A DNA stretch of 64,000 nt from contig CM097885.1 of the NCBI GenBank assembly GCA_044892525.1, forward strand, positions 126,542,001-126,606,000, written 5' to 3'. Below, piece by piece: positions 1-25,651 of this stretch (its first letter is position 1; each line of letters starts with the position of its first letter). Made by a program: the position numbers and the translations under genes. Origin of the DNA: Schmidtea polychroa. Taxonomy: Eukaryota. A model generated the notes under the pieces. That model saw only the letters and a program-made list of their open reading frames with translations. It did no database searches and was not told where the DNA came from.

Positions 1-3000
1 CTTCATTTGCGTGGGACTAAACCATGTCCCCTCCAACTCATCGATCTTCCTTTTGTACTTTCCAATTTGCGCTTGTAGATCCCTGATAACTGAATTCTTG
101 TCCGAGCAAGAAAAGCAAGGTTTAAGAATGTTGTTGGTACTTGAAGACATCTTGAATAGCTATGAAGAGGAAATGCGAATAAAATCAAACTAAGTCAAAT
201 GTGAGACATCATCATCTAGTCACACTCATACCATACTGATCATAGATTATCATACTGACAAAACGAGTTTATTAGCCTGAAGAGATTTCGTTACCCTACA
301 GATCTTGTACGCTTGGGGTCATTATTTATACGAGAGTGGATCATTCATGCAAGATTTTACCGAAGGAAAGTAAGGTATTATCCTGGATAAGGGAAATTAC
401 AGGTTGATGAAATTACAATTTAATCAATTTACCTGAAAACAGTACCTAACATTTAAAGAGAGTTTAAATTAAATTATAGATTTACCCCAAGACAAATAAT
501 TTGGATGTGTAGATCTTATGCATGGATAGGCGATTTATCTTTAAATTAATTATTCAACATAAATAAGACTCTATCAATTGCTCTGCAATTATTTGTTTGC
601 GATAAGTAAAAGTTTGTTAATTAATTTGCACTTGTTTAGTTGTGAGAAAATCAAAATGATTAAAACAAAGTTGAATATTTAAATGAATTTAACCACGTGT
701 ACCCAAAATGTCTGTCTGGCCGCTATCTATCATTTCTGATCGGTGAGAAAATCGGGTGACTGTCAGTAGTATGTTTCAGTGAATTATGTTTCAGCTGACG
801 CGTCAGGTTGGATTTCCTGTGATTAACAGTCTGTATAATCTACATATTGCGAGTAGCCTCTGTGATTATTCTAAAGCGCATGGCGCATGAAAATTTTCTC
901 TCACCTACTTCTACTTAGTCATAATCGCTGACTGATGTCTTCATGCTCTATGCCATGCCGGTGTATGCATGCAGGTGTATTTTCCCTTATGACATATTAC
1001 ATCACTGACGAACCATGTATCTACCTCAAATGCTGCTGGTTATCTCTCATGGATATTTTGGAAAAACCGGATTTCTACATCATCAATGTTGGAATTAATT
1101 CACGATCCCTCAAATAGGATTTACTAGCTCGTCTCGTGGTCCTCCATCGCTATCAATGTACGCCTGCTACTGCTGTCAAATTGGAGATTTATTACTTATC
1201 CCAATGCTGGATTTTCCACCCGACGGGATGTGGACATTTTATGGTTTACTGGGTAAACAATTATTCTAATAAATTATGTTTTAGGGAAATACATTTTTAC
1301 TGATTGGAGTTATTCGCTTTTATTTTTAATGATTACTTAAACCTATTTAATTACGTGATTTCATACAATTTCATCTTTGAGAGGACATATAGCCGATGGG
1401 AATAGCGATTTCGCAAAAATCGTTAGTCGAAAATTTCAAGATTAAATTTCTAGCGAATTCGAGAACTATGACAACTATGGCATACATAGCACTACCAAGG
1501 TTGGACGGTTTTTTAACGAAAGACTTGCCTAGATCTACTGGATGATAAAGAAGAATTTTAACTTGATCAGACGCTGTTATAATACGCTAGTGCGACACCC
1601 TCAATCACTGCGCGAACATATCAAAATTTCTCCTATTGATCGATTCATTCTCCTATCCTACTTCCTCGTATGAATTTTCATAGAATTTAGTCACTCCTTC
1701 AGCGACGGACCCGTGAGGAAGCCCCCACATTACGGCCCGAATCAGCTGCGTGATTGAAAAGACCCCATGTCCACCGGCTGAGCTCCCGAAGGCACCTCAC
1801 ACCATGACATAGAGTATCTCAACACCACGTTTCTCCAAAATTTTAAATATCATAAAATCAACAAATAGTAAAAATTCCTTTCATTCAAATAAAATATTTA
1901 TTACCAATTTACTAAAACATTTAATTAAGTAAAACCTTCAAATCAAACGAAAAGAGAAAAATGATTATTAAATTTAGACTACTATAAATTCATAAATATA
2001 CATGATCGTTGCATGGTAAACCTAAATAATGGAAAAATCCCTTACCAAATTTTCAAATAGGCTGAATCGAAAAGTTCTGAACAGAATTGGTTAATACTAG
2101 AATAGGTTATAGAATTGGTTGAGTTTCCTGAATTCCTAGAATAGTCCTTGAAATGATTTCGGTGAATCTGTGGCTGTCGCTGTGAATTTTGGTTTCTAAT
2201 GTAGTGGTTAGATGAACGGTAATTGTTAATTAAAATGCACTTACCTAATGTAGTGGTTAGATGAACGGTAATTGTTATGATTTTAGTGTCTGCTTATATA
2301 TTAGTTTTCTATTTATGCGGACCAATCAGAATGGAGTACCGCTTATTTTTATTACTTTAATTTGTTTTCCTTGTTTTTGAGTTATTTCTTCCTATTTTCT
2401 TTATTTTTATTGTATTTTTATTTATTTTCTTTAATTTCCTTATTATTTACTGCATTTTACGTCATTTTCCGTCATTTTATTGTCCTATTTCAATTTTTCG
2501 TGTTTTTATATTTTTTGTTTTAATTCTTATTTTCTAATTATTGTTTTTCTTATTTCCTTTCTACTTTGTTGCGTAGATTTGTTTATTTTATTTTTATTTT
2601 TATTTTTAATTTTTGTTTCGTTATGCTTAACCTAATCTCTCAGATACTCTTCTACTCAGCCCAACACTCGTCTTTCGTCAGTGTATTGTACATTTGAACA
2701 AGGTCGATGCTGTGTTCTGCAAACTGAAGATCGTTGAACTTTGGGTTCCTTCTGCAGGAAGCATTCGCATTTCGCCACTCCATATTCTATCAGGACGTCA
2801 TAGATTATGTGTGTCTTTCTTGTAATTAGATCTTCCAAATTTAATCTCATTGGAAGTTTTGAAAGGCAGCAAACTTTTACCATTTTTTTATTTGTATCCG
2901 TTGTCACGTAATCATCAAAAAACGAGAGTCCTACCATATTGTTGAGGTTTTAAAAGTAAATTATATTAAATCGAATAGGTCCGAATAAAGGGAAAACCGA

Positions 3001-3859
3001 AATGGAATGGCGGTCAAGCACAGGAGTAATGGCAAAGAAAGATATGATAAAAACGGAACTATAAAAGGATACAATCAGACTCGTAATGGAAAAATGCGCA
3101 AACCTGAGGAAGTGGAATAAAGTGAAAAGTTATCGAAATTGAAGCTGGAAAACGGGAGAGGGGTAGATTAAAGACAGTGAACAAGAAATTGTTAGAAAGT
3201 GTTTAGAAAGGGTCGTAAAACAGGCAAATAATAAAACACAAAATATTAATTAATTAATTGGCTAATGGGAAACCCGAGCGATGAAGAAACCGCGAGCGCG
3301 GAAATTTGGAAGAATAAACAAATGGGGAATTCAGAGAGCAATTATCCAAACAGCCGGATAAACGAGGGTAAACAAAAGAAGGGGAATTACGAAGAGGGTC
3401 AACAGAAATAGCTAATTGGAGAATGATAACTAAGGAAGTCAAAACCAATTAGGTCAAAAATAGGGCAATTACAACGATTATGGGAGTATATAAAGAAACT
3501 CCAAATTCACATAATGGGCAATAGCCTTAGGTAGGGAAACAAATATACGTTGGGAGTTTGTGTTTATTAATTTTTGGAACACGTGGAGTCAGAGTAACCA
3601 ACGGTCGACTTTTTAGTATTATAAAACCCAACAATATGTTCACAGAAGGCTACGGTACGATTGGGGTAATTCTTAAGAATTTATAATAGACGGTGATCAT
3701 TGTAAGGGGCTCGGACTGTAGGGTGTTCTTCATTCCATTGCCTCGTGTAAACTAATCCCTTGTACCATGCAACGAGAAAGCCTCAAGTGGATAAAGTTGC
3801 CAAATGATGATAACCATTTGGACGAACAATTCATTAGGAATCTAGTGGTGTATGTACGA
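1..3859 (-). repeat. 3' LTR, partial (cut by the window start; also lacks the outer ~816 bp of U3)
   Basis: 1-3859 matches 26819-30677 with no indel and no differences in spot checks; similarity stops abruptly after ...GTATGTACGA. Confidence 0.93.
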
Positions 3860-3936
3860 CAATACATAGTGTTTTTAGTTCAGTTCTGGCATTGTTTGGT
3901 CACTCTGATGGTTCTGGTTGGGGTTTGCTGCTACAA

Positions 3937-4525
3937 TTACGAACTGGTGTTATGGTAGATTGGGCGATTGGACGATGGTTGAGGAGATTCTTTATGGTTT
4001 AGTCTGGGTGAGCTTGTGGTTTGGATAACATTGGTTATTTCGGCTGGGTTTTGTACGGTGGCTCTGGATTTCGAGCTCTGACATTTTTTCTTAACTTCGA
4101 GGATTTTTAGGAAGGTTATGAGGCATAACAAGATAGTTTCTGCGATCACTACGTAGAGAAGGTAGTGGGTGTCGCTGTTATTTGAGGGTGTTTCTGTTGT
4201 CTCGGCCGGATTTTCGAACACTTCTTGTTGTATTTGTTGTTCCAACTGATCGAAGTGTTGGACTTGTTCGAGTATTTTTCGGTCCATCATTCGGCATATG
4301 GGGTGATTTTTGCACAGACTTCTGACGTTATTAACATATGACCGAGTTGACTGGATACTGTGGAGGATGTTGGTTTTGGCAAGGTTCTGGTTTGGCTTTT
4401 TGGTTTCGATTGCGGTGATCTCGTATGCTTGTCAGTTGAGCGTTTAATTGTTGTTTCTCCATCAGGTGATTTATCAATACCATTACCGTTATCACGATTC
4501 CATACCGCATTGTACTAATATACAT
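3937..4525 (-). pseudogene. Probable single type-I membrane protein gene split by a frameshift near 4435
   Basis: ORF 4331-4525 starts with a hydrophobic signal-like segment; the frame of ORF 3937-4290 is open back to 4431 and contains TM YLLYVVIAETILLCLITFLKIL; no AT-rich spacer separates the two ORFs. Confidence 0.5.
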
Positions 4526-4564
4526 CTATTATTATTATATTATTTACACTGGCTTTAATTGCTT

Positions 4565-5269
4565 TTAGTTAGATGGTTCTCCTTTGGGATTATTTTCGGC
4601 ATTTCTCATCAGGGTAGATTCCGCTTCAATGACCCGGTGTCTTAATTCCGGCATCATCTCTAATTGCCGATCCTTTTCACGGGCTTCCCTTTTTAGGTGT
4701 CTTATCTCCCTTTTTAGTTTGCTTATTTCTTCTCGTTTCTTTACGAGATTTCTTCTTAACTCGATTTGTAGGAAGTCTTGTTCGTTCTCTTGTGGAGGGT
4801 TTCGTTGTTGTTGTTGTCTCTCGATTTCTTTGTATTTGCGGATCCATTTTTTCATTTTTTCACTTTCTCTTTGTTTTTCTTCCAATTGTTGATTTAATTT
4901 ATTTATAGTTGTTTGGCGTTCTTTCACCTCTGTTTTCCAGTAGTCTTGGATTACTTCTTCTGCTTTGAAGCTTGCCCTTTCTTGCCATAATTCCTCTGCA
5001 ATCCTTTCCCAATTTCTTCCTCGTGTTCGTTGTTCCTGCAGCCATTCATTTCTCTCTTCTGCTTCTCTCTTTACTTTTCCTAGCACTTTGCATTCTTTCT
5101 TTAATACTTTAATCATTTTCCGGTCTTCCATATATTTGTTCACTAATCTCTCGTTTTCCCGTTTCTCTTCTCGTAATTCTTTCGATAGTATTTGTGTTTC
5201 TGTGACTTCCATTATAATTTCTCCTTCTTCTACTTCACTCATGGGTTCAACTATCTCTTCAATTTTCAT
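4565..5269 (-). CDS. Coiled-coil accessory protein (234 aa)
   Basis: ATG after ATTATAG|AT; E/K/R-rich heptad-like sequence. Confidence 0.75.
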   Translation of the reverse strand: MKIEEIVEPMSEVEEGEIIMEVTETQILSKELREEKRENERLVNKYMEDRKMIKVLKKECKVLGKVKREAEERNEWLQEQRTRGRNWERIAEELWQERASFKAEEVIQDYWKTEVKERQTTINKLNQQLEEKQRESEKMKKWIRKYKEIERQQQQRNPPQENEQDFLQIELRRNLVKKREEISKLKREIRHLKREAREKDRQLEMMPELRHRVIEAESTLMRNAENNPKGEPSN

Positions 5270-5438
5270 ATCTATAATATTTACAATTAATCATGCGCTA
5301 CAGTGCGACTTATACTTATACATTTATATCGTTTTTATTTACACAGGGTTACAGTCCCTCAAATACTTTTACTATACTATTAATTTTTTTGTTTGGGATA
5401 TAGTCCCAATTTTTGAATTTTGAATTTTTTATTAGCCC

Positions 5439-6612
5439 TTATACGAAGGTTTCCTCCTGACCCACATAACCTTCATCACTATCGACCGCTGGATGCAACT
5501 GTATCGCAATAGGGTCATAGGGTAGGTAATATTGGGGGATTTGAGCTCTCAATTCATTAACTTCGTCTCTTAGAGCTCGAGTGATATTCAGCTCTTCGTC
5601 GAGCAGATAAGTGAGATACCTTGTCTTTTCGTCTTTCGCCTCTACTTGTCTATCTAAGGCCTTGATTTTCTCGTCACCCTTCCATTTTTCAATTTCTATT
5701 TCCAAGTTTTTGATATTTTCGGTATACATTTTCCTCTCATTTTCTAATTTTCTATTTTTTCCCGCTAGGACCATGTTTCTTTGTTCTAACGATCCTTGTA
5801 GTCCATTAAGGTCTCTTTTCATCTCTTCGACCTGATTTACTAATTCCACAACCCGTCCTGCTTGTTGGGTTATCATCTCTTCCATTGCGGCATTCTCGTG
5901 CTCTCTTATGTCGCATTTTATTGCCAAATGTCGCTCAAACTCCATAGCCTTTGTTTGCCAGGTTTGGCTTCGGGCTGCGACCTTTTTCAACCGTTTCAGT
6001 TCTTCCTTTATTATTAAATTTTCCTCCTATTTACCCTGTTCGCTCTCATATCCGAGTCTCATGGGCAATTCTTTCATCTCTTTTTTCATTTCACTATTTT
6101 GTCTTTTCCATTTTCTCGCTTCTGCTACTAAGTGCATCATTTTCCTTCCTTCTATTTGCCTTTCCGCTTCGCGCTTGGTGTTCTCATCGGTAAGTCTCTT
6201 TCTCGCTTCCTGCACTAGCTGCTTTAAGTAGTGGCTGTGCGCTTCTTGGCGGGTATTTTCTAGTGACGCCCATTTTGATGCTCTTTTGCATGCTTCTGCT
6301 TCCGCTCTTAAGTTGTGTATTAACCATTGGTATTGACTATTCTCATCCTCTCTAGCTCCTTCGATGTGATTTCGGGTGAGATTAGTTAGTTGGAACATTA
6401 CTTTGTTCCATTTTTTGTTATGTTCTCGAGGAATTTGTGTCTTGTTGACATTGGTTGGGGCTATCGCAGTTTCGGTTAGTTTCTCTTGTGTCATCTCTAA
6501 ATCATAGACATCGATTAATCTTTTTATTATGAAAAAGGAATTTATTCATTATTTGCTGTTCCTTTGGAAATTTTCGCATCATTTTTGGGTTTACGTATTT
6601 AGGGTTTTTCAT
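5439..6612 (-). pseudogene. Long coiled-coil accessory gene broken by one in-frame TAG (6027-6029) and probably a frameshift near 6520-6545
   Basis: Track ORFs 6027-6494 and 5439-5990 share a frame (QGK*EENLIIKEELKRLKKV); an upstream ATG at 6612 (AATAATAG|TATG) opens a 36-codon frame that overlaps the start region. Confidence 0.65.
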
Positions 6613-6688: not shown

Positions 6689-8077
6689 TTACTCCGTTCT
6701 ACCCTTCTCCTCTTTCCTCACGGTCATCTTGATATACACCGTGTCATTTCTTGCCATATCTTCTACTTTTTGTTGTAGGATGAACGTAGGTGCTCCTGTT
6801 GCTGATCCTTCTTCTTCCGTAGGTCTCTGGTAACACATTTGGTTTCCCGTTGTCTTGAAGCTTTGTTCGTGGATGCTTCGGTCATTCATTAGTGCAATAT
6901 CGATTTTTGCCTGGAACGGCCACTCTATTATTTCGTCGTATTCCCCTTTACATAACAGAAAGAAAATCGAAAAGTGCGTATCTAATCCGGCTCCGTCCCC
7001 GTTGGGATATATCTTCATTTTCATTTTGTACCCATTCTTCCAAGAATGGAATGCAGGACTTGTTATTCTTGTCTCTTCTCCGGTTTTTGCTTTTCGTATT
7101 CTTTCTTTTACTCCCGTTATTTTCCATATGTAGGGTGCTGTTGGGGTTATCTCATTTAGATTTATTTCCCGTATTTTCTGATGTAGCTCCTTGGCCTGAT
7201 TATTACTGATTTCTATTCGGTTTATTTGCATCTTTATGTTTGCTCGGGCTTCCTCGAACGCTTCCCTTTCTTCTAGTAGTTCTTTGACTAACACTTTCAA
7301 CGATGTTATCTCTATCTCCATTTGTTTTACTTTCCCTTCGCTTTCTTGTAACGCAGTCGACCACATTTCTGCGTGGGTGGAAGCATTTTCTACTAAATGG
7401 TGTGGTAACTCCCCTCGGTGTAATAGTTTCTGACAACCCCATTTACCTAGTACACATGTCATTCTTTTCCTTTCACATTCCCTTAGATGCTGTGCCACCT
7501 TTATTATTTCCCCTTGGTTGCATCCGTTTGGGCATTCCCCACTGAACTCTGCACATACCATTTCTTCTTGGACATTGTGATGTTTGAGGGTGAGATTTTT
7601 CCACGTATCTATTTCTCCACAATGTTCACATCTTTCTAATCTCTCTTCACACTGCCTTTGATGTTCTTTTTCTTCGCTTGCTCGAATGGTTTTATGGCAC
7701 CTTTCACACTGGCCGATTCTGTACATACATTCTCCCATATGTTGTACTACCTTCCAGATTACTCCTTTCCATTCGCATGGGGCATTTTTGCATCCCAGGT
7801 TGGTGTTTAACATGTCTTTCACTGCGGCTTTATCTTCGTTAGTGTCTTCTAAACTCGATATTCGTGTTTCTTTACACACCGGGCACCACTGTGGTCTATT
7901 TTTTATTGCTTCACTGATACATTCTTTACATACTCTGCATCCACATTGAGTTTGGTGAGGTTCCTTTAACAACTTTTCACATATTCCGCACATAACATGT
8001 TTGTGTATTCTGATCGTTGTAGATTTTCGGACTTGCTCGACCATCTCTCTGAACTCTTCTCTTTGTCGTTTATCCAT
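6689..8077 (-). CDS. Intronless full-length TRAF-family protein (RING, TRAF zinc fingers, coiled coil, MATH/TRAF-C)
   Basis: CGICEKLLKEPHQTQCGCRVCKEC...CPVC; CKNAPCEWKG; YIWKI, SPAF, GYKMKMKIYPNGDG, THFSIFFLLCKGEYDEIIEWPF. Confidence 0.95.
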   Translation of the reverse strand: MDKRQREEFREMVEQVRKSTTIRIHKHVMCGICEKLLKEPHQTQCGCRVCKECISEAIKNRPQWCPVCKETRISSLEDTNEDKAAVKDMLNTNLGCKNAPCEWKGVIWKVVQHMGECMYRIGQCERCHKTIRASEEKEHQRQCEERLERCEHCGEIDTWKNLTLKHHNVQEEMVCAEFSGECPNGCNQGEIIKVAQHLRECERKRMTCVLGKWGCQKLLHRGELPHHLVENASTHAEMWSTALQESEGKVKQMEIEITSLKVLVKELLEEREAFEEARANIKMQINRIEISNNQAKELHQKIREINLNEITPTAPYIWKITGVKERIRKAKTGEETRITSPAFHSWKNGYKMKMKIYPNGDGAGLDTHFSIFFLLCKGEYDEIIEWPFQAKIDIALMNDRSIHEQSFKTTGNQMCYQRPTEEEGSATGAPTFILQQKVEDMARNDTVYIKMTVRKEEKGRTE

Positions 8078-8161
8078 TCTATAATTATATGTACATATAG
8101 TTCTTATCGATACAGGTTCGATATTTTATTTACAATTATTTACATTTAAGCTAGGTTTGGT

Positions 8162-8521
8162 TTAGGGTTCGGAAGAGTCGGCTTCGTGTCCGCTCTCCTC
8201 TCTATTCATTAGCCATTCCGACCAGTCTTCTATTTCTGTCTGTTCTGCTTCCTCCATCATTCGGTCTAGTTCAATTTCCTGTCTACGGCTATATTGGGTT
8301 ATCCTCTCTATCTCTCTTTGCATTTGTTCGATTTTCAACCTCTGGTCTTCAATTATCTTCAAATAACTAAATCCTCTATTCATACTCTCAATTAGGTTTC
8401 TGTGCATCGTCAATCCTTGTTCTTGCAAATTGGACACTAATTGTGCTAATACGGCACATTGTTGCTTCCATAATTCTTCAGTTACTGTATTGTGGTTCAT
8501 TTCGTTATTTCCTTGATCCAT
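8162..8521 (-). CDS. Small coiled-coil accessory protein (~119 aa; ATG start MDQG rather than the TTG in the track)
   Basis: First ATG at 8521 preceded by AAG|A; helical Q/E/R-rich sequence. Confidence 0.6.
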   Translation of the reverse strand: MDQGNNEMNHNTVTEELWKQQCAVLAQLVSNLQEQGLTMHRNLIESMNRGFSYLKIIEDQRLKIEQMQREIERITQYSRRQEIELDRMMEEAEQTEIEDWSEWLMNREESGHEADSSEP

Positions 8522-8681: not shown

Positions 8682-11600
8682 CTATATACGTGAGTTTGGA
8701 GGGCGCTGAGCGTTCCAGGCATCCACCCACTGTTCTTGTTTGATATCACTTGGTCGTTTCACTCGATGTTGGAAATTTCTGATTCGGGTCATCTCTAGTT
8801 CTCCGCGATGTCGTTTATCTTTAATTATTTTTATTGTTCCCCCCGTTATGATTAGGAATGCCCCTGTTATTATTATTCCGCTGATCCACATCATCTGCTT
8901 CACGCTTATACTCTCTGGTTTTTCCTTGTTTGTTAATGTTGATATCGCTTCTGTACTTTTCTCGTTTCCTTTTTTGCCATTTCCTTCCATCATCTCTCGT
9001 ATTCTTGCTATTTCCTCGTTCAAACCCTCCTTTGCCATCTTTTGTATTTTTTCCATTTCTTCCTCCGAAACATAGTTGTCCTGAGCTTCCTCGCCGGTTT
9101 TCTTGTGCTTTCCTCCTTCGTCCTTTTCGTCGTGGTTTTTTCTTTTCTTTCCTCTTTTCCCCGGGTATCGTCGGCATTCTCTTTTTGATTCGTTCCTCCA
9201 GATACAAACCGTGTATTCTTTCGGCGGCTGCTGCTGCGTCACATATTGATGGCATCTCTCACCTGGTCCTAATCTTGAAATACAGACTTTGTGCTCTTTT
9301 CTAGGTTGGAGCTGCGTTATTACTACTTCACCACCTTTTCCTAGGTGTACCTCTTTTCCTTTAACGTTCGTTATTCTCTTCCCGTCCCGATTTCGGTATG
9401 CTTCTTGTATTCTTACTTCTGTTATTGGTTCTGTATCTTCATTTATTAACACTAGTCTCTGATATGCTCTCGACACACATCTTCCTAGTATGCACCTTTC
9501 TTTTAGATTCCATACCTCCTTCAGATCCCATTGCTGCTCTTGTGCTTGCTTTTTCTTTTCTTGTTTTAGTTCTTCCTCTTTGCTGTCTTGATTCTCCGCT
9601 TCTTTGGTTTCCTTTATCGTTCTCGTCCCACCGTGGGCTGTTATCATTTCTACCATTGTTAGTATGAGTATCATTACCATCATATTTGTCTCCATTTCCT
9701 TGTTGGTAAAAAGTAGGCATACCCTCTGTTTTCCAGTATTCGTCTTTTCCTCTTCCTTTGTTCGGCTTCCCGGGTTATTTTCCTCCTTTTTCATACTCGC
9801 GTCGTTATTTTCTTGATTATTCTCCTCTGATTTCTCTTTCTCTTTATTCCCGTTTCGACCTTTTTCATTATTATCGTCGTCTTTATCGTCTTTCTCTCCC
9901 CCGCTGTCGTTTAAAATGTCGTCCTCGACATTTATATCATTCAATAATCTGCGGTATGCTGTTAACACTCTGTTCCTTGCTAACTTTGCTTCGAATTCGA
10001 ACTCTTTTCTACCCGTTGCAGCATGTCTCTTTCTATTCCATTCTTTGACTAATTCTCTCAATTGAAGACGACGATGTTTTCCAATTCGTTGTTGCTCGTT
10101 TTGATTTTGCGTGAATTTGAGGTCCTCTCTATTTAAGACTATTAAGATAATTTTAGGTGTCCCCCCTTTATTTAATGTATTTTTGACCATCTCGTTTTCG
10201 CCGTTCTCGTAAAATTCGTTTACGTTTATCGCATATTTATTACTTTGCGGCACTCTCCATGTTAACAATAATTTCATTGCTTCTAGATTTTTTCGTACCG
10301 TATTCCACTGGAATTGGGATGTATTTTTGCATATATTTTCCACTTCTTCCTTTGTCGCATTTTTGCAGATGAATCTGATCATTTCTAGGTTTGGCTGAAT
10401 GGTTGCCCAGTCCATTGTGGAATTTCCTTCGTTTGACTTTTCGTCTAGTCTTGATCCTGATTGATGCAGTATGTGGAGTGTTTTTGGGTGTATTTTCGTT
10501 ATAGCTGCATACATCATGGCGGTTTCGCCTTGTTCATTTTTTGCATTAGATTCTTCTCCGAAGTCTCTAAGGATTCTTATGATGGTTATTGCTCTGTTTT
10601 CTTTTGCTGCTAAAATGGCTTGTTGTAATGGTGTTCTTGAATCTTTTGTTGGTAAGGTGAATGCTAGTGGTATAAATGTTTTTATTTTTCCTATGTCTAG
10701 ATTTGTGGTCTGGTCTCTTGCGTAGGTGTGTACTGTTTTTGTTATTTTTGCTAGTATCGCTTCATCGGATAGATCTTGCATTTCTTCGAAGAATACTTCT
10801 TTAGCCTTACGTACTACTATCTCTTGGTCGGAGTTTATTGTCTTTGGTTTACTTGTTGTTGCTACATCGCTTATTATTTGATCGACTCGTTTCTCAGACT
10901 CTCTTGCTGTTATTTTCTTGATTTTTATCTTTTTCTTGTTTGAACTGTTAACGCGTTCCTCTGCCGTTAGAACTTGAATAATACTTAGGTAGTTTTCTCG
11001 AATGTTATTCATAGTTTCCATCATATATAATACACTCACGGTTTCCCAATATTTTACTTGTACCTTATCGGTAAATTGAGATATAGTTTTTTCGAAGTTG
11101 GTAATCCGTTTTCTGATTAGTTGTTCGTCTTTGTGATTTGAAAACTTTATGCCACGTTGTAGTAGTTGATTGGGAATTTCGAATAGGTGATGTCCTCTCA
11201 TCGCTTCTCTCATCAAGGTGTTTTCTCCTTTGGTAAACGTTTCGTTTATATCTACCATATAATCGTTTCTGATCGGGTTCCTCCATGCAATTAGTATTCC
11301 AGCAATTGTTATTAATTTCTCTTTGATTGCAGTTAGTAACCCGTCGTACATGTTTCCTATCTCCCTATTATCCTCGTACGATAATAGATCTACTAAGATT
11401 ATGAAGGCTTCCGCACTTTTCCCTTCGATTGCATGATGCAGTGCGTTTTTCTGATTGCGATCTTGTGTGGTTATTTTTGATCCAGTTTCAAGTAATGCGA
11501 TAATAATATCTTTAGCTTTATCCCGATTGGCTGCTATCATTAGTGGAGTGTAACCTTGGTTGTTTTCTTGATCTGTCGAAATGTTACAGTCGCGAAATGC

Positions 11601-14600
11601 TTCAATTGTCTCTAGTATTTGTTCATTATTACCAACCTTTAAAAGTTTGTGTAGTGGTGTATCTCCGTAGTGATCTGTGATTGTGAATAATATAGGCCAT
11701 TGACTTTTAACCACTCTGAGTAATGGGTGTGTTCTTTCTCTGTTCGCATAATTTTCGATCATCGTCAATAATCCTCCTAATATTTCGAAATCTAATCGAT
11801 CTTTTGCCCATCCGGGTAGTTTTATCTTTACCTCTCGTACGATTTTTTCCGCTTCCGATGGTTGTATGCCCGATCGTCCAGGGATAGGTTCTGCGAGTTG
11901 TTGCATCATGTTCATTCTGTATGTTTGCGAACGTGTGGTTAATGTTCGACCTTCCGGTTGACTGGTGGCGGTTTTTGGAATTGATTTACATCGTGCCACG
12001 TTTACGTATATTGGCCTGGTGAATGGATTATTTACCAATTTCACTCTTACATTGGTTTCGCCTACAAATAGAATCTCATATGGTCCTTTTCCGTTGCGTT
12101 GTAACTTTTTTGTGGTTCCTGGAATTAATTCCGGGGTTTCTATCATTACCCAATCACCTGTTTGAAACGTATGTTGCTTCACGTTTTTCTTTCGATCGTG
12201 TAAATCTTTATAACTTTCCTGGTAGAACTTGATATTTAATCCCGCAGTTTCCCAAATTTCTTGCATCCTTTCCTTGAATTTCGTAACATAATCGTCGATC
12301 TCCATATACTGCGATATCGGTGGTTGGTATTCCAGGTCCATTGGCATATTACATTCTCTTCCGTACATTAATTTGAATGGGCTCATTTTTGTTGATGCGT
12401 GAATCGACATTCTGTACGCCATAAGACATAGGTTTATATATTCGTCCCAATCTCGTTGGTGACGGTCGACGTAGTTTGATAACATTTGTATAAGCGTTCC
12501 ATTAAATCTTTCCGTCATCCCATTGGTTTGAGGGTGATATGGAGATGTTCTTAGTTTTGCTATTTTGAAGTAATTTGTTACTTCGCTCATTATCTCACTC
12601 ATAAAATTAGTTCCCTGATCGGTTAATATTTGTTTTGGTGTTCCATATCGGCAACATATCTCTTCTACCAAAATTTTTGCGATTGTTTTAGCTTTTTGGT
12701 CTGGCATCGCGAATGCTTCTGGGAATTTCGTAAGAAAGTCTGTAATCACTAAAATATAAACGTTCCCTCTATCCGATTCTGGTAATGGACCAACTACGTC
12801 CATGGATATCATCGTCATCGGCTCTATTGGTACGGGCATTGGCGTTAAAGGCGCTTTCCATTTTGATCCAGTATTTTTCCTGGTCGCACAAGTTAGGCAA
12901 TTTTTTACCCATTCGGTTACGTCTTCGGTTAACGTAGGCCAAAAATATTTCTGTTTCATTCTTGCTAACGTCTTTTTCGATGACATATGTCCTCCCAATC
13001 TCCCATCGTGATATTGCGTTAGTAACTCTTTTCGTCGGTTTTCCGGTATACACATTAACCTCTTCTCTCCATCCATTATCAGCAACCAATCTTTTTCTAT
13101 AATATATCGGTGTCGGTGTTTATCCATATGTTCTTTTAATTTTTGGTCTTTCGCATATGCATCCGTCTTTCCGGTTTTTACATAATCGATAATTTGTTTT
13201 AATTCCGCGTCCTCTTGTTGGTCCTTTCGCAGTTGACAGAAATCCAAATCTTCCGCTACTATTAAGCATATGCGTTGCATTTCTGAATCCACCAAATCTG
13301 GAAAAATGAATCTTGACATACAATCGGCGTTGGCATTTGCTCTTCCTGCTTTGAATTTTATAAATGGGGAATATTCTTGCAATTGCATGGCCCATCTCAT
13401 CAGTCTACTGGACGCTTCTTTATGTTGCCCTAACCACACTAATGGTTGATGATCTGTGGTTATGCATATCTCATGTCCCCATAGTAAATATCGGAAGTGT
13501 TTGATAGCTTGTATTATAGCCAATGCTTCTCGTTCTGTTACCGAATAGTTCTTTTCGTGCTTTTTGAATGTTCGACTGTAATACCCGATTACTCTCTCTT
13601 TTCCTTCATCGTCTAATTGTCCCAGAATCGCGCCTGCCGCGTACCCGCTTGCATCCGTTGCCAATAGAAATGGCTTCTTAAAATCTGGGTGTACGAGGAT
13701 AGGTGCTTCGATTAGTTTATCTCTCAGCGTTTCAAACGCCTCTTGTTGTTCCTTCCCCCAAATGAACGAAATGTCCTTCTTTACTAATTCCTGGATTGGT
13801 TTTGCAATTCCTGCATAATTTTTGATAAATTTGCGATAGTATCCGCATAATCCTAGAAATTCCTGAACTTGGGTGACAGTTTTCGGTGCTGGACATGTTT
13901 TTATTTTCTCAATGTTTCTTGGATCTGGCTCCTTTCCTTTAGCTGACACTATGTGTCCCAAAAACGTGACTTTTTCCTTTGCCCAATCGCATTTTGATGG
14001 TTTGAGTTTGAGTTTCCACTGTCTTAATCGAATAAATACGTTTCGGATATCTTCTAGATGTTGTTCAAATGTCGCTGAATAGATTAGTAAATCATCAATA
14101 TATACCATACATTGTTTGATTCCATGAGTGACAAAGTTCATACACCGTTGGAATGATGCTGGTGCATTGGTCAGTCCGAATGGCATTTTCCGGAATTGAT
14201 ATAGATCTCGTCCCAGCGTGAAAGCTGTTTTCTCTTTGTCCTCATCTTTGACTTTAATCTGCCAGTATCCACTTTTTAGATCTAAAGAAGTAAAATATGC
14301 TGCCCCTTGCAACATCAATAACATCTCATTGATGTCCGGCAATGGATAGGTATCTCTCTTGGTTACTGCGTTTAACTTCCGATAATCGATACAGAATCGT
14401 TGGGTGCCATCTTTCTTTTTTACCATGACCACTGGGAATTGCCAAGGTGAGCAACTCGGTTCGATTACTTTTGCGTCTAGCATCTTTTGTACTTCTGCTT
14501 CGGCTATTTCTTTTTGCATTTCTGCTAGCTTGTATGGTCTTAATGCAATTGGAGTTTCATCTATGAGGGGTATTGCATGTAGGGTAACATCGCATGTACC

Positions 14601-17600
14601 CAAGTCTAAATCTGAGATGGCGAATATATCTTTATATTCTACCAACAATCGGTGCAATTTTTTCTTTTCATCATTCGTCAACAACATACTATCTATTGTC
14701 CATAATTCATCATCTTTGATCATTTCGTTGGTCACTTTCGGTAATTCTATGTCTATCATTGGGGTCAATCTTCCCAATTTTTCGTTCTCATAAATGATTT
14801 TGTCTTCCTCTTCGAAATTCGTGATGTTGAGCGGTATCACTCCTTCTTGGTTTATTGTGATTATTTCCCTTGCGAGTGGTAACTCTCGTCGCTTTTCAAA
14901 TGACTTGCTTGGTTCAAAGATAACTTCTCCTTCCATACCCGTATCCACTTTTATCTGACAAATCATCTGTGATTTTGCTGGTACCACAATTTTCTCTGGA
15001 CATCTGATTATGGCATTCATTTTGCATATTCTACCTGTTTTGTCTTTTAAACACATGGTTGTTAAATCAATCACCATTTCTTTTAATAATTCCGGCATCA
15101 GGTCCGTTCCGATTATGCATGGTACGCTAAGTTTTGGTATTACTGCCAAATACGTTTCAATTTCGTTGTCCTGGTATCTCAATGTAGTCCACCATCTTCC
15201 GACCACGTCCACCGTTTCTTTACTACATGCTATGATGTGAATTGTTGTTGATTCGATATCTTTCCAGTGCTTACTGGGGATTTGATTAATCGCTATCGCT
15301 GATACATTAGCTCCGGTGTCTATCATAGCATTGGTCTCTTTACCATTGATTTGAATCATGACTGTTACTGCTGGACCTCCAGGTAAACTCATCGCTGCTA
15401 TTGTTCTTACGTCATCTGCTTGATCTACACTTTTGGTACGTCGTGTTGGCATATAATGCATACCGGGTTGACTCGGTAATTGCGGATACATGTTTTGTGT
15501 CATGGTCAAAGCTGCTTGTGGTCCCACGATATCTGGCGGTATATAGCTTCCATTGGCGATCCAGGTATTTGTTTTTTCCTTTTCCCAATATGGTGCCGTT
15601 TCCATTGGTTTTTCGTTTGGGTTTCTGTTTGGATATAGACATTTATCGTTCCCGTTATCATCGTCGTCACTATCGCTGTTAGATGATTGGCTTCTAAATC
15701 GGTCCAAGAATTTTTGCTTATTCTTTTTCAATTGTCGTCTTGTTGCTTCATCGTACATTACTTTCCGGAATCGTCTGCCTACTTCTTCGTCGGTTCCTTT
15801 AATCTTTGTTAGTATTTTGATCAATCGCTTTATCCGATGGATGTCTTTTGAGTGACCATGTAATACCATGGTTTTTGCTAAAAATGGTAAAAAGCCTACT
15901 ATCATTTTCCAATTTACTTTCTTTTCTCGATTGTATATATCAAAACAAGCTAACATTTGTGTTAGTATTACCCTGACTATCTGAATTATGAGTATGATCC
16001 CCAGTATTCCGGCCATCATTTGTCCAAAAACTAAAAATCTTCCCCACATGGCTTTCATCATGTTTGACGTGGCTTGTTGAAAATGGTCTGGCGATAGTAG
16101 CAGCTCGTAATTCGGGCCTGATTGATAATTTGTTCCCCCCGTTATTGTAACCATATTTGACAAAATGGATTCTCGTCTGGCTGGGAAGAGTACGTTAAGT
16201 CGTGCTGTTTCTAGATCTTCTGGGGAATACATACCACCGTTTGACACGTCTATAGGTTTGAAATCCAGCTCTGTGGCGAGTTCTATTAATCCAAATTTCT
16301 TGGGTTCCTCGAATATGGTTTTTCCCGGTAGCATCATCCATTTCCCATCGGGTCTTTCATATAAAGGTCCGTATGCATTAGAACAGTTAAAGAGATTTGG
16401 GTAGAAACCCACTGGATTCATAATTCTCGTGACTGGTTGGACGAATCGATTTTGTCCCTTATAACGGATTTCTAATTCGTTTGCACATCTCTTTTCGGGT
16501 AGTATGGATTTTTCTGGCATTCGTGCATACGTCTTTGTACACTGGTATGTGTACATCACTTCTCCTACCATTCTACCAAAATGTCCGTCTGGTAATGGGA
16601 GTGATGGCATCGTGTTATCTGGGTGTGTTATCGCAATAGCTAGCTTTGTTTTCAATATTTCTTTATTCAATGAACAATCGTTTTGTATCAGATCGTAATA
16701 TACTTTTTGCAAGGTCGTTTGTCCGCGATGAAATAGAAAATCCATTTTATTATTTGCATATAAGTATAGTTTTACGTCCTCCGTTGCTATCTTTCCCACT
16801 GCTCTATCGATTATTTGTCTCGACATATAGATACCAGCGTAATTGGTTTTATATACTATACTGTCACATTTGGTGGTTTCTTTCTCTTTGATAAATCTCA
16901 TACCTAGATCTGGATCGTCTGTGATTAATGCTGTTGGTGTCTTCTGCGTTGAGAGTCTCTTTTCTCTGGGAGATGGTGGCATTGGTTTTCCATTTCGCAT
17001 TCTCACTCTGTCGTTTCCATCCTCGTCGTTCTCGTTCTCATAAATTTCTCCTTTTACTTCATTGAACAAAGCACTTTTTAACAGTTGGAGTCGGCATTTT
17101 TGGGTATTAGCTTCATAGATTATAGTTGATACTCCTGTCCTGCATACGTTTTCTGTAGCTCTACACGCTGGGTTGGTCTTCATTTGATAATTATTTGCGT
17201 CAAATTGCGCTTCGTATTCTTTTAATTCAACCGTATAAGACTCGATCACTACTACTCCCGATATTACCTCGCCTCGGATCGTATACGTACCTCCGTTACA
17301 TGACCCATCTGATGATTTTACTTTTCCGGATACGTAAACACTTTCGGTTTTAATCATTCCAGTTTGTCCGTGAATCGTCACTCCGTTATGCATTTTTAGC
17401 GCTCCGGTTCTAAATAGCTCTTTACAGTCCTCTCGTTGTATTGATACGATTTCTTTATCCAGACCGGGTAGTATAAGAGTCGAATATGAATATTGTCCAC
17501 AGTAATATGCGAGTACCTTTTTTGATACTACGCATTCCCTTGCTTGCGTTCTGATGAAATCTGATTCTTGATATACATGGTAAGTAACTTTTGTTCTTAC

Positions 17601-17747
17601 TATGTCTAATTTGTTGGGTGATGCTTGTCTGCATTCTTCTATGTCTCTCAATGAGTATTTATCTCTCATTATCATATTATCACAATCGTAGATGGTAAAA
17701 CCCGTTGCTCCACTTGTGCACAACATCCATATCATCATAGTCATCAT
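8682..17747 (-). CDS. pol: Env-Pol polyprotein: signal peptide, chuvirus-like glycoprotein, TM, aspartic protease, RT, RNase H, integrase, ankyrin repeats, second membrane module
   Basis: G: IYDC, YYCGQYSYS, GEVMYTYQC, GMYSPEDL, TM ~15945-16030. PR: DTGA at ~15318. RT: YIDD 14091-14102. RH: TDASG. IN: H-H-C-C, DVVGP, GPY. ANK: GDTPLH, GYTPLMIA, GETAMMYAA. Confidence 0.95.
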   Translation of the reverse strand: MMTMMIWMLCTSGATGFTIYDCDNMIMRDKYSLRDIEECRQASPNKLDIVRTKVTYHVYQESDFIRTQARECVVSKKVLAYYCGQYSYSTLILPGLDKEIVSIQREDCKELFRTGALKMHNGVTIHGQTGMIKTESVYVSGKVKSSDGSCNGGTYTIRGEVISGVVVIESYTVELKEYEAQFDANNYQMKTNPACRATENVCRTGVSTIIYEANTQKCRLQLLKSALFNEVKGEIYENENDEDGNDRVRMRNGKPMPPSPREKRLSTQKTPTALITDDPDLGMRFIKEKETTKCDSIVYKTNYAGIYMSRQIIDRAVGKIATEDVKLYLYANNKMDFLFHRGQTTLQKVYYDLIQNDCSLNKEILKTKLAIAITHPDNTMPSLPLPDGHFGRMVGEVMYTYQCTKTYARMPEKSILPEKRCANELEIRYKGQNRFVQPVTRIMNPVGFYPNLFNCSNAYGPLYERPDGKWMMLPGKTIFEEPKKFGLIELATELDFKPIDVSNGGMYSPEDLETARLNVLFPARRESILSNMVTITGGTNYQSGPNYELLLSPDHFQQATSNMMKAMWGRFLVFGQMMAGILGIILIIQIVRVILTQMLACFDIYNREKKVNWKMIVGFLPFLAKTMVLHGHSKDIHRIKRLIKILTKIKGTDEEVGRRFRKVMYDEATRRQLKKNKQKFLDRFRSQSSNSDSDDDDNGNDKCLYPNRNPNEKPMETAPYWEKEKTNTWIANGSYIPPDIVGPQAALTMTQNMYPQLPSQPGMHYMPTRRTKSVDQADDVRTIAAMSLPGGPAVTVMIQINGKETNAMIDTGANVSAIAINQIPSKHWKDIESTTIHIIACSKETVDVVGRWWTTLRYQDNEIETYLAVIPKLSVPCIIGTDLMPELLKEMVIDLTTMCLKDKTGRICKMNAIIRCPEKIVVPAKSQMICQIKVDTGMEGEVIFEPSKSFEKRRELPLAREIITINQEGVIPLNITNFEEEDKIIYENEKLGRLTPMIDIELPKVTNEMIKDDELWTIDSMLLTNDEKKKLHRLLVEYKDIFAISDLDLGTCDVTLHAIPLIDETPIALRPYKLAEMQKEIAEAEVQKMLDAKVIEPSCSPWQFPVVMVKKKDGTQRFCIDYRKLNAVTKRDTYPLPDINEMLLMLQGAAYFTSLDLKSGYWQIKVKDEDKEKTAFTLGRDLYQFRKMPFGLTNAPASFQRCMNFVTHGIKQCMVYIDDLLIYSATFEQHLEDIRNVFIRLRQWKLKLKPSKCDWAKEKVTFLGHIVSAKGKEPDPRNIEKIKTCPAPKTVTQVQEFLGLCGYYRKFIKNYAGIAKPIQELVKKDISFIWGKEQQEAFETLRDKLIEAPILVHPDFKKPFLLATDASGYAAGAILGQLDDEGKERVIGYYSRTFKKHEKNYSVTEREALAIIQAIKHFRYLLWGHEICITTDHQPLVWLGQHKEASSRLMRWAMQLQEYSPFIKFKAGRANANADCMSRFIFPDLVDSEMQRICLIVAEDLDFCQLRKDQQEDAELKQIIDYVKTGKTDAYAKDQKLKEHMDKHRHRYIIEKDWLLIMDGEKRLMCIPENRRKELLTQYHDGRLGGHMSSKKTLARMKQKYFWPTLTEDVTEWVKNCLTCATRKNTGSKWKAPLTPMPVPIEPMTMISMDVVGPLPESDRGNVYILVITDFLTKFPEAFAMPDQKAKTIAKILVEEICCRYGTPKQILTDQGTNFMSEIMSEVTNYFKIAKLRTSPYHPQTNGMTERFNGTLIQMLSNYVDRHQRDWDEYINLCLMAYRMSIHASTKMSPFKLMYGRECNMPMDLEYQPPISQYMEIDDYVTKFKERMQEIWETAGLNIKFYQESYKDLHDRKKNVKQHTFQTGDWVMIETPELIPGTTKKLQRNGKGPYEILFVGETNVRVKLVNNPFTRPIYVNVARCKSIPKTATSQPEGRTLTTRSQTYRMNMMQQLAEPIPGRSGIQPSEAEKIVREVKIKLPGWAKDRLDFEILGGLLTMIENYANRERTHPLLRVVKSQWPILFTITDHYGDTPLHKLLKVGNNEQILETIEAFRDCNISTDQENNQGYTPLMIAANRDKAKDIIIALLETGSKITTQDRNQKNALHHAIEGKSAEAFIILVDLLSYEDNREIGNMYDGLLTAIKEKLITIAGILIAWRNPIRNDYMVDINETFTKGENTLMREAMRGHHLFEIPNQLLQRGIKFSNHKDEQLIRKRITNFEKTISQFTDKVQVKYWETVSVLYMMETMNNIRENYLSIIQVLTAEERVNSSNKKKIKIKKITARESEKRVDQIISDVATTSKPKTINSDQEIVVRKAKEVFFEEMQDLSDEAILAKITKTVHTYARDQTTNLDIGKIKTFIPLAFTLPTKDSRTPLQQAILAAKENRAITIIRILRDFGEESNAKNEQGETAMMYAAITKIHPKTLHILHQSGSRLDEKSNEGNSTMDWATIQPNLEMIRFICKNATKEEVENICKNTSQFQWNTVRKNLEAMKLLLTWRVPQSNKYAINVNEFYENGENEMVKNTLNKGGTPKIILIVLNREDLKFTQNQNEQQRIGKHRRLQLRELVKEWNRKRHAATGRKEFEFEAKLARNRVLTAYRRLLNDINVEDDILNDSGGEKDDKDDDNNEKGRNGNKEKEKSEENNQENNDASMKKEENNPGSRTKEEEKTNTGKQRVCLLFTNKEMETNMMVMILILTMVEMITAHGGTRTIKETKEAENQDSKEEELKQEKKKQAQEQQWDLKEVWNLKERCILGRCVSRAYQRLVLINEDTEPITEVRIQEAYRNRDGKRITNVKGKEVHLGKGGEVVITQLQPRKEHKVCISRLGPGERCHQYVTQQQPPKEYTVCIWRNESKRECRRYPGKRGKKRKNHDEKDEGGKHKKTGEEAQDNYVSEEEMEKIQKMAKEGLNEEIARIREMMEGNGKKGNEKSTEAISTLTNKEKPESISVKQMMWISGIIITGAFLIITGGTIKIIKDKRHRGELEMTRIRNFQHRVKRPSDIKQEQWVDAWNAQRPPNSRI

Positions 17748-17768: not shown

Positions 17769-20700
17769 TCAGCTTGCTGGGTCTTTCATGGGTAGTTCCC
17801 ATTCTAGTTCATTCAACAACTTCTTCAATCTAACTTGCATCGACCTTTCTTGCTCATTTTTTCGTGGCGCTTGTATCAGTCTTTTCCATCCTCCGGCACG
17901 AATAATATGTGGTTCAATAGTATTCTCTATGATTGAAACGGTTATTTCCACGTGATTTGCAAATTGTTTATTTGGTATTTTCCTCGCAGCTAGTCCCATT
18001 AAATTATACATCAAATAAGTGATTACCACTAGATGATGTTCGTCATCATTTGCATTTGTCGTGAGCTGTTCGATCACTCTCTTCGTTTCGTCCCAATCTG
18101 TTTTGGTGGTTTTCGTTTTCTCTTTGATTAACTTTGGGATTATCCCCGAAACGATGTGCCATAATTGTCTAGCTTCCGTACTGGCTACTTTCCGTTGCCA
18201 CAAACGTCTAAGTTGTGGGTTTGTTATTATTAACATATCTTTGATCAATTCTCGTATCCATTTTTCTCCTCTTTCAATCGTGGGTTGGGCTTCCTTTAGA
18301 TCCCATACTATTTTATCCAATTTTTCTAATCGAGCTTGCCCTTGTTCTTGCTTTAATTGTTCTTTGGTTTTGAACTCAGACTTTTCTCCTTGTTTCTTAG
18401 GTCTTCCTTTTGCCCGTTTTTCCATCATCGTTCCGGCTTCCCTGGTATTTTCGTAATTCGGATTTCTTTCGTTATCCGTTCTGGGTAATGAGCTATCGTT
18501 ATTTCTTAGCCACTCATTCCATTCGTCTATTATTTTATCGGTTTGACCTTCTGGTGTTACTTTCGTTGGTTCTCTTTGCTTCTGGAATTGTTCATCCGTT
18601 TCGGTTTCCGTAGTGTTGTCGATGATTTCTTTGATGTTTAGTTTCGTTGGTTGTTGATAACTCGTTGATGGCTGGTTATTAGTCCACATTTCGGCTCCTG
18701 TCGGCCATCTCACTAATAGCGGTGATCTTTCTCCTGGTTCATCGTCACTATCTTCCAGGATTATCTCTTCAACTTCTTCAGTTTCATTAGATTTACTTGG
18801 TGCTTTGTTCGGACTTGGAGTACTCAAACTGCCTTTTGTTGGTTTAGTAATTTTACTTTTCCTTTTTAACGGTTTCCCCAACGTTTCTGCCATTGTTAAT
18901 ACATTTGTCTCTTCCAATCTCATGGGTGTTATTCCGACGTCTGCATTATCGTCTAGTGACTTTCCGAATAGTTGCAGATGGAATGGAGTTTCATATGCTA
19001 ATTTCTTTTTTAATTCTCTAATTTTTGTTGTTGGATGCACCTCTAGTTCCTCGATGCTCTTGTCCGGATACTTGGTTCGGATGTGATACCTCTCCTGAGT
19101 GTCTTGTGCCCATTCCTGATTTCTCCATTTTCGAATAATTTGTTCTAGCTGTTCTGGATACCATTCATTATATTGCCTGTATTCCTCTATTGCCTTTGCC
19201 ATTCCTCTCAGATTGTGGATGTTCTCTGATGTTTTTAAGATGATGTTAGCCAACGCTACTACTTGGCGTTTTTGATTTTTCGCTCCCATTGCTAAGATAT
19301 CGCCTAATTGTTTATATCTTTCTTTCTCTTCTCGTTCTCTTGCTTCCGTCGCTTCCTCGCCGTCCATATCAGCATATTCACGTTCCTTTTTTCTCATTGC
19401 ATGAATATGTCTCGCTTCATTTTCGCTTTCTGATGTGACACCCGTCTCGCCTTCGTCATCTGATGTCTGTCCCCTTGCTTCCTCTTCATATTCTGGAGGT
19501 TCCTCTTCTTCTTCCTCCGATTCACTTCCTGTCTCACCAATGTCTGTTTCTACGAAGATTCCTTTCTGGATTTCCCATTCCTTATTTTCTGCATTCCACA
19601 CTCTTTCCCATGGGGTTCGTCTGCAGGATCTGGTACTTAGTTTCGTGATTTTTCCTTGTAGTTCTTTTTCTTTTAACCATTGTTGGTGGATTTCAATTAT
19701 TTCTGTAGATTTTTGATATAACGTTTTCATCCGGTCCCGTATTTCTTTTTGATAGGTTACATCTCTTGTTCGAAATTCATCCATTGGTACTATCCTGATT
19801 ATCTGATGATTGTCCCACATACCCATTTCGCTTAACGAGGTGTCGTCTTCCGCTCGTAATATTATTTTATCGTACATCATGACTACATCATCCACCATAC
19901 CATCACTACTTTCGCTACGTACCTTTTCCGTTATCTCTTGGTTTATCTTTGATACCAAGTCATCCACTGTACTCTGATTGCTCATTGTTATTCGTCGTTT
20001 TTCTTCGTTCGGTAACCATATGGTTATTTCCAACCTCTGTGGCTGGGTTTCTTTTAACCTTCCATATTTGTGGATTAAATTTATGGTTCTCCAATCACTC
20101 ATCCGGAGCATTTCTGTATCTCGCAATCGGCTCATTAGTTCGTACATGGCTGGGGCTCGTCTGGTGATGAGTAAATCCCAGTTGTCTTCCACTTGTTCTT
20201 GAATTTGTTTGATCAGCTTATCCAGGTTTCGTCTCAGAGTACATTGTTTTATTTGTTCTAATTTCAATTTGATATTAAAATCATATTCTGCCTTGGCATC
20301 TTTAGCCCAATCGTAAAGGTTGGCTGGTTGTTTTTCTTTATGCAACTTCAGTATTTGCGTTTCTCCTGGCCATATTAGTGCATCTACTAAGTGCATATCT
20401 GGTTTGATCTGTTCTCCTTGGTATTGATACAGATATTCTTTCTTTCTCGAACTTCCCAAATGTTCCCGTATCCAATCGAAAAGTTCGTCGGTGACTGTAT
20501 TTTTTATCCACATTCTTTCAAGTCCTCTACTCGTTCCGATTTTTATTACATACCGCGTAGTATCTGCCTGCTTCATTTTTTCCATATACTTTTTTATAAT
20601 TGATTTTTCCTCGTTTGGTATTAGGTCTTTCTCGTTTCTTTCCAATTTCATCACTTTTTGTACGAATCGTCTGAATGGTATTATATCGATGAATTCTTGG

Positions 20701-23209: not shown

Positions 23210-23918
23210 CTAAAATGAAAAAATGATCTCGTGTTGCATCTGCTTACACGACTTCATCATTCTTTCTGCAACATTCAAACACAGACACCTTTTAGGTTCT
23301 GTTTATGCTTCCCCTATTTTTTATGCAATTACTTCCGCGGGTTATAATCTCCCATCAGCCCGAATTTTTCGTCGATTTTAAATTATCTATATGGGGTAGT
23401 AACAAATATCTATATGGTCGTATAAATTATCTATAGTTATCACTTATAATATCGATAGGTCGTTGTCGGTCTCTGCTTATTACCCCCCTTTCATTTTCCT
23501 AATCCTTTTGCGCTGTTGTCGCTATTTTACTTTTTATATTTACTATCATTCCACTCGGTCCTACTCTGGAACCAATAAAATGCATTTTCCCGGTTTAACC
23601 CAAAACAAAATATTCCGTAGAGTTTCTCTACTTCACTGGGATCCCTTTAATTAGTTGGTTACTTTCCTCTTCTACTCGTTATCATCATTTCACGTATTCT
23701 TTATTTTCCATTATCTTTTAATTCATTTCCTTCTTCCCTTTCCTTTTCCGTCATAATCTCATTATCTTTTCCACGAGCTCGTTTATTTCCTCTCTAAACT
23801 CAAATTTTCGTAATTACATTCAATTTGTTTCTAGCTAGCTTTAATATTCCCTTTCTCTACTAATTCAGATATTAGCTCATTGTAGCTTAACTGCTATCTC
23901 TCGCTTTTCTAGGCCTTT

Positions 23919-25633: not shown

Positions 25634-25651
25634 ATCCCGGCTGAGCCCCCA
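25634..25651 (-). promoter_or_regulatory. Primer-binding site complementary to the tRNA-Pro 3' end
   Basis: Minus strand TGGGGGCTCAGCCGGGAT; plus strand ATCCCGGCTGAGCCCCCA closely resembles the eukaryotic tRNA-Pro 3' end (ATCCCGGACGAGCCC+CCA). Confidence 0.8.

Follow-up and report, generated by a model that had tools for sequence, protein, structure and literature searches.

The 462-aa TRAF gene located at positions 6689–8077 on the minus strand of the window (the whole 64,000-nucleotide stretch of Schmidtea polychroa contig CM097885.1 analyzed here) is carried by a giant Burro-type Gypsy element, and about 280 copies of this element TRAF are present in the genome. It is a fixed accessory gene maintained by purifying selection, likely captured once, long ago, and likely acting as a survival adaptor or a ubiquitin ligase; we regard this combined reading as somewhat probable.

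The ORF runs intact from ATG to stop on the strand common to gag and pol, and it is a TRAF family member by its RING (eight cysteines, aa 30–68), TRAF-type zinc fingers (approximately aa 96–235), coiled coil (approximately aa 232–307), and MATH domain (aa 316–453). Pfam recognizes a C3HC4 RING at aa 30–68 (E 2e-4) and the TRAF MATH domain at aa 316–453 (E about 1e-25; PF21355, E 3e-26). Among PDB structures, the element MATH matches those of TRAF3, TRAF1, and TRAF2 (E about 1e-27 to 1e-26), and the RING with the zinc finger matches TRAF5 (E 2e-14), TRAF6 (E 4e-12), and also TRAF2. The AlphaFold model based on a 92-row alignment (mean pLDDT 92.8) has the full TRAF layout of RING, zinc fingers, long helix at aa 232–307, and MATH sandwich, and its top Foldseek matches are TRAF domains (TRAF2/3, E about 1e-17). 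Residues Cys96, Cys101, His113, and Cys117 of the zinc finger are invariant across the 92 aligned TRAFs. All described TRAF features are present, far above chance. The preliminary description of a complete RING–zinc finger–coiled coil–MATH protein, uninterrupted, encoded on the strand of pol, and reading CGCRVC where CGHRFC is usual, is borne out in these respects.

The RING ligands are spaced as C30-x2-C33...C45-G-C47-R-V-C50-x2-C53...C65-P-V-C68, and Cys47, the fourth zinc ligand, aligns with the histidine of CGHRF in TRAF5, TRAF6, and TRAF2. Cys47 is present in 80 out of 80 element proteins, the C3HC4 histidine at the fourth ligand being absent; the eight RING cysteines are kept in 79–80 of these 80 proteins, and Ile32, Gly46, and Lys87, in all 80. 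RINGs of the C4C4 type have a precedent in the E3 ligase NOT4.

The same preliminary description treated the variant RING as a special mark of the element TRAF, and this part did not hold, as cysteine is the norm in this genome: matches of the general CGC[RK-type]xCxxC motif number 920 in the genome (one in the control), and those of its His version, 11 (three in the control). Every host TRAF RING in the set compared carries Cys, and two His-type matches are found upstream of host MATH domains that group with conventional TRAFs, at distances of 2.3 and 6.2 kb. Among 150 database relatives, gathered by a full HMMER search (a word-based homologue search with the element TRAF found nothing), 96 have a matching RING, 79 of the His and 17 of the Cys type; the nearest named proteins are TRAF-2/4/5 of Dendrocoelum lacteum, which suggests a triclad host. 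Cys47 leaves the TRAF membership intact, because Cys is common to the host genes and to 17 of the 96 RING-bearing database relatives. The Cys-for-His RING is also seen in P0032 (Antedon TRAF3-like), on a separate, non-planarian TRAF branch, and the change therefore seems to have arisen more than once.

In full-length host TRAFs, the stretch from RING to MATH is unbroken by an intron in eight out of eight genes examined, five of them with an in-frame Met. Since the nearest host genes are intron-free from RING to MATH, absent introns alone are not proof of retro-capture. Judging by the motif counts and gene structures, both the Cys-RING motif and the lack of introns are traits of the host lineage and not specific to the element.

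Of the proposal that the gene is a retro-captured host TRAF, the host capture is supported by the trees, and the lack of introns does not by itself mark it, the eight host TRAFs being alike in this respect. The phylogeny with host TRAFs, suggested earlier and now constructed, yields the planarian Cys-RING genes of the host lineage as the nearest kin. In full-length trees (built without L119, L083, P0040, P0077, P0099, P0146, P0056, and other rows), the TRAF considered here and that of a second Burro family described below join (99/97; 97/94 with a mixture model), and element and planarian Cys-RING TRAFs together split from conventional TRAFs (95/98; 99/99 with the mixture model). Within the Cys-RING group, one tree places the element clade as sister to the whole set of host Cys-RING genes (84/83), and the mixture model puts it weakly inside the host clade (65/82); in the topology test, nesting in the host clade is not rejected (p-AU 0.36 and 0.35). 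In the MATH tree, both accessory TRAFs and the polyprotein MATH of the second family join (95/93), and the host tandem arrays stand apart (98/92). The 102-column RING–ZF1 tree leaves the two element TRAFs unjoined, and with these data a grouping of element TRAFs with the host arrays is marginally rejected (p-AU 0.044). Attraction between the element rows is possible, given their unusual composition and long stems. Such kinship of the element TRAFs with their planarian Cys-RING counterparts is indicative of a single ancient capture, and in our best reading the gene was likely taken from planarian Cys-RING TRAFs and later duplicated within the element.

The element carrying the gene is an env-bearing Burro-type Gypsy element on the minus strand, about 31.8 kb long, with LTRs of about 5.0 kb. 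Its 5′ LTR (25659–30677, minus strand) holds a 247-aa ORF (26225–26968), and its 3′ LTR (1–3861, minus strand) extends 1,160 bp past the window start. The LTR pair shows five differences in 5,019 nt, with identity across the 3,859 bp inside the window, and the insertion is therefore young. The order of the element is LTR, RING ORF, gag, env, protease, RT, RNase H, integrase, ankyrins, 119-aa ORF, TRAF, three coiled-coil-like ORFs, small ORF, and LTR, all these features lying on the minus strand. The RING ORF (24848–25324, 158 aa, C-terminal zf-C3HC4_3 RING) has the same position in the second family. The gag side (17769–22550, 1,593 aa) contains retrotrans_gag, zinc knuckles, and a weak Bcl-2-like end, and is devoid of MATH; the Bcl-2-like end has a Pfam E-value of 0.047, under the cut-off, and this region found no match when compared with PDB. 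The env–protease–RT–RNase H–integrase–ankyrin frame (8682–17747) comprises 3,021 aa from the first ATG, its env being a Monjiviricetes-type fusion glycoprotein according to Pfam. A single in-frame stop separates gag from env-pol in the window copy, and many other copies have one frame of 4,732 aa; the apparently shared stops at pol positions 2282 and 2662 were rejected as projection artefacts, the 4,732-aa frame being seen in many copies.

Directly upstream of TRAF lies a helical ORF of 119 aa (8162–8521, minus strand; dN/dS about 0.12), whose counterpart in the second family occupies the equivalent position and is about 31% identical, and a putative splice-acceptor-like YAG (8078–8095, minus strand) is located one nucleotide before the TRAF ATG. 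The downstream accessory ORFs (3937–6494, minus strand) are three coiled-coil-like ones (6027–6494, 5439–5945, 4565–5269) and, last in the series, an ORF with a hydrophobic stretch (3937–4290). By eye, the latter and the end of the polyprotein (8682–9700) have hydrophobic, membrane-like stretches.

Several features of the non-coding parts and flanks were also noted. Positions 23917–24286 of the leader, which separates the RING ORF from gag, hold a 74-bp tandem repeat, and a primer-binding-site-like stretch at 25634–25651 (minus strand), 7 nt inside the 5′ LTR, probably resembles tRNA-Pro. Two terminal bases are missing from the 5′ LTR, which adjoins an older repeat from position 30678 onward. 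A target-site duplication sought at both flanks was not found, the right flank being the older repeat and the left flank unlike it. A host gene for glutamine-dependent NAD synthetase (703 aa in a single frame, 32349–34460, minus strand) is situated 1.7 kb from the 5′ LTR.

A search with MATH revealed the second Burro family (loci L105–L107, L102, and L110), whose polyprotein of 4,791 aa contains an internal MATH on the Gag side. The env-pol parts of the two families are about 66% identical. The second family has a full TRAF downstream in the same slot, 28–29% identical to the window TRAF and directly followed by a BIR–RING IAP ORF of 392 aa, so that the two form a TRAF–IAP gene pair; the homologue search with this BIR found nothing. 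The family-specific RING motif has 283 genome matches (none in the control). The window family has neither a BIR gene beside TRAF nor a MATH in the polyprotein.

The possibility, allowed for in the preliminary description, that TRAF is missing from other copies and represents a one-off insertion is contradicted by the copies themselves. A protein search of the genome with TRAF yielded 92 scored loci of 1,909 candidates, all 93–100% identical and 91 of them stop-free; the element also aligns with all 29 non-self TRAF loci that have flanks and with all 40 longer stretches. In a sample independent of TRAF, comprising 40 of about 66 integrase matches outside the TRAF list (150 scored), TRAF is in place in 36 copies, and the remaining four end before that region. 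The frame is open from RING to MATH in 24 of the 36 TRAF-bearing copies (a separate tally gives 13 of 36 with a disrupted frame, as expected after insertion). The family-specific degenerate RING motif has 281 genome matches, decayed copies included, and none in the control; an exact 23-mer has 125 matches, and an exact RT 22-mer, 241. A tandem cluster at C1:152.9–153.5 Mb, considered as a candidate domesticated TRAF, was rejected, since it holds broken element fragments (four loci around motif matches).

The overall dN/dS of TRAF, about 0.13–0.19, demonstrates purifying selection. In 41 copies picked by TRAF similarity, pN/pS is 0.147 for TRAF (0.119 for variants seen in at least two copies and 0.24 for singletons), and in the same copies it is 0.041 for RT, 0.024 for IN, and 0.161 for the ankyrin region. 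For 24 intact integrase-picked copies and the window, dN is 0.064 and dS is 0.488 (dN/dS 0.132), and among 88 unique intact TRAF frames the ratio is 0.16–0.23 per domain; only intact frames were admitted to the dN/dS sets. The ORF is intact even in sub-lineages with saturated dS, where dN is 0.17. As shared variants arose in replicating lineages, we infer that the constraint serves the element. The base composition of the element TRAF equals that of gag and pol (A3 0.45, vs. 0.30–0.38 in host TRAFs), which fits long residence. The dS values per domain are uneven for the same copy pair when positions 6692–8077 are compared with other copies (e.g., coiled coil 0.07, MATH 0.63), which suggests recombination between sub-lineages inside the TRAF gene.

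Under the preferred reading, TRAF would be produced from a spliced sub-genomic RNA, with the YAG before its ATG as the acceptor. YAG is found 1–2 nt before the ATG in 140 out of 140 family starts found (the loci being partly redundant), and it also precedes the TRAF and IAP starts of the second family; its presence before these ATGs suggests spliced sub-genomic RNAs. Contigs from runs presumed to be RNA cover the TRAF ORF, but none of the joints listed falls at the TRAF acceptor. In S. mediterranea, BURRO1 RNA is repressed by piwi (PMC8532177). The protein would trimerize via the coiled coil and MATH, and its RING may pair with itself or with RINGs of host TRAFs; with its altered MATH groove it could join or displace host TRAFs at the tails of receptors or adaptors, tilting TNF-type or stress signaling away from death, possibly together with the Bcl-2-like and ankyrin domains of the element and, in the second family, the adjacent IAP.

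The details of the RING and MATH domains bear on the type of activity. The element RING retains Ile32, Gly46, Pro66, and Lys87, the last aligning with Arg126 of TRAF6, a ubiquitin-contacting linker residue, and the TRAF2 insertion is absent. Position 34 is Glu or Lys (Glu34 in the window copy), whereas TRAF6 has Leu, which presumably has a role in Ubc13-type ligase activity; such activity of the element RING is therefore doubtful. In the MATH groove, the Lys/Tyr pair is kept, and the serine run, Ser-Ser-Ser of TRAF2/3, reads Gln-Met-Cys.

The role of a survival adaptor seems the most likely one because host TRAFs are needed for cell survival in planarians (PMC7586133, PMC8807557) and anti-death-type cargo lies nearby. 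Several observations speak against it. The window family has no BIR beside TRAF, and the Bcl-2-like match is under the Pfam cut-off. That a TRAF borne by a virus acts on death signaling has a precedent, which favors a role in this pathway, although the one viral case compared is pro-apoptotic (PMC3352826).

Alternatively, the protein might be a decoy that occupies host TRAFs or the sites where they dock and prevents antiviral or innate signaling, without a productive ligase role. This is a rather unlikely possibility: heterodimers of TRAF RINGs use a conserved interface (PMC5702613), the groove serines are replaced, and the MATH loop at aa 408–428 is among the most variable stretches (ratio 0.33, rank 10 of 441 windows). 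On the other hand, the RING and all zinc fingers are as constrained as MATH (0.16–0.19), which goes beyond the need of a simple decoy, and no sign of positive selection was detected in the MATH groove, no stretch examined having a ratio above 1.

It is less probable that TRAF acts on the own products of the element, e.g., ubiquitinates or scaffolds Gag or Env during particle assembly. The MATH fused into the Gag-side polyprotein of the second family, which belongs to the same element clade, and the second RING ORF encoded by the element are consistent with such a role, but the window family is young and numerous without a polyprotein MATH, and the remaining cargo, with its BIR, Bcl-2-like, and ankyrin domains, is suggestive of death and immune pathways.

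The earlier suggestion that the element feeds the TRAF expansion of its host stands only as a matter of copy number. The motifs of the two element families account for about 564 of the 920 Cys-RING matches (61%; nesting of the patterns is almost complete but not strict). When ten motif sites outside the elements were sampled on C1, eight proved to be host TRAFs with two exons, located in AT-rich arrays, and the remaining two lacked TRAF similarity. The host tandem arrays (C1, about 2–17 Mb; C2, about 1–5 and 105–124 Mb; L192–L211) consist of short two-exon Cys-RING TRAFs with very divergent MATH exons and form a clade of their own; as this clade is separate (98/92 in the MATH tree; the rejection with RING–ZF1 is marginal), the element did not seed them. 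Thus, on these comparisons, the element raises the TRAF motif count but is not the founder of the host arrays. A stronger version, in which the element is the source of the expansion and intron-poor host Cys-RING TRAFs descend from its copies, is quite improbable. It draws on the contrast between the intron-poor Cys-RING clade and the two His-RING host TRAFs found, which extend over several kb and fall among conventional TRAFs, and on the tree with the element clade sister to all host Cys-RING genes. Against it, no host gene nests among element TRAFs, the arrays have an intron besides being a separate clade, the host genes are AT-rich and lack the flanking ORFs of the element, and the mixture model weakly nests the element in the host clade, which the topology test does not reject.

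Finally, a passive hitch-hiker or one-off insertion without function, to which the disrupted frames might point, has a negligible probability, being refuted by the selection data (dN/dS 0.13–0.19, intact ORFs in the sub-lineages with saturated dS) and by the presence of TRAF in two families with env-pol so divergent.

The element TRAF bears on the unexplained TRAF expansion in planarians (PMC6109357, PMC8807557). The figures in print are transcript counts (PMC6109357, PMC7586133); with about 60% of Cys-RING motif matches being element copies, TRAF counts in genomes and transcriptomes may be inflated, and the actual host expansion is the separate clade of tandem arrays. A bolder picture, which we consider possible but doubtful, is that Burro would be an analog of complex viruses, expressing a TNF-pathway kit (TRAF, IAP, Bcl-2-like, ankyrin) from spliced RNAs, with hundreds of intact TRAFs acting on host death signaling and inflating planarian TRAF counts; in its boldest form, the intron-poor Cys-RING subfamily of the host would itself have begun as a copy retroposed by the element.

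Among known proteins, the planarian host Cys-RING TRAFs (L072–L077, L109, and TRAF-2/4/5 of Dendrocoelum lacteum) share with the element TRAF the architecture, length, CGC[RK] RING, and absence of introns from RING to MATH, but are only 26–33% identical to it and differ from it in lacking the element-like composition, the altered MATH groove, and the hundreds of dispersed copies within elements. The element TRAF agrees with vertebrate TRAF2/3/5/6 in fold and domain order, keeps the basic linker residue, and is free of a TRAF2-type RING insertion; it differs in having Cys instead of His as the fourth zinc ligand, Glu where TRAF6 has Leu, and other residues in place of the groove serines. ORF111L of ISKNV, likened here by description only, is a TRAF carried by a virus; it comprises a RING, a coiled coil, and a MATH domain and influences the death signaling of the host. 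Unlike the element TRAF, it has 296 aa, comes from a fish DNA virus, is pro-apoptotic, and has no zinc-finger array described in the available text of the report (PMC3352826).

Burro, or GYPSM1, elements (Jurka 2007; Grohme 2018; reviewed in PMC6431247) are giant LTR elements of the Gypsy-like type that occur in planarians; they exceed 30 kb, have long LTRs as well as ankyrin and BCL2-like domains, and carry env in the interval from gag to protease. The window element, with its length and LTRs, env between gag and PR–RT–RH–IN, and ankyrins after IN, is assigned to Burro by this reviewed layout (PMC6431247), not by identity to the named Burro1–4. The MATH, BIR, and BCL2 cargo of Burro, and even an accessory MATH ORF, are already in print: the review lists MATH_TRAF_C and BIR, with MATH_TRAF_C of Dugesia tigrina in an accessory ORF (PMC6431247). 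The second family has both the polyprotein MATH and BIR, whereas in the window family MATH is found only in the accessory ORF, with no BIR. A literature search found no account of a full-length Burro TRAF ORF, the selection acting on it, or the fraction of TRAF copies it contributes beyond PMC6431247, although Grohme 2018 or its figures may show the ORF. In the review, the MATH domain belongs to the polyprotein or to an ORF upstream, whereas the present element has a full RING-to-MATH gene downstream of pol, and the published guess that Burro meddles with apoptosis and ubiquitination of the host (PMC6431247) becomes testable with a complete signaling gene that is under selection.
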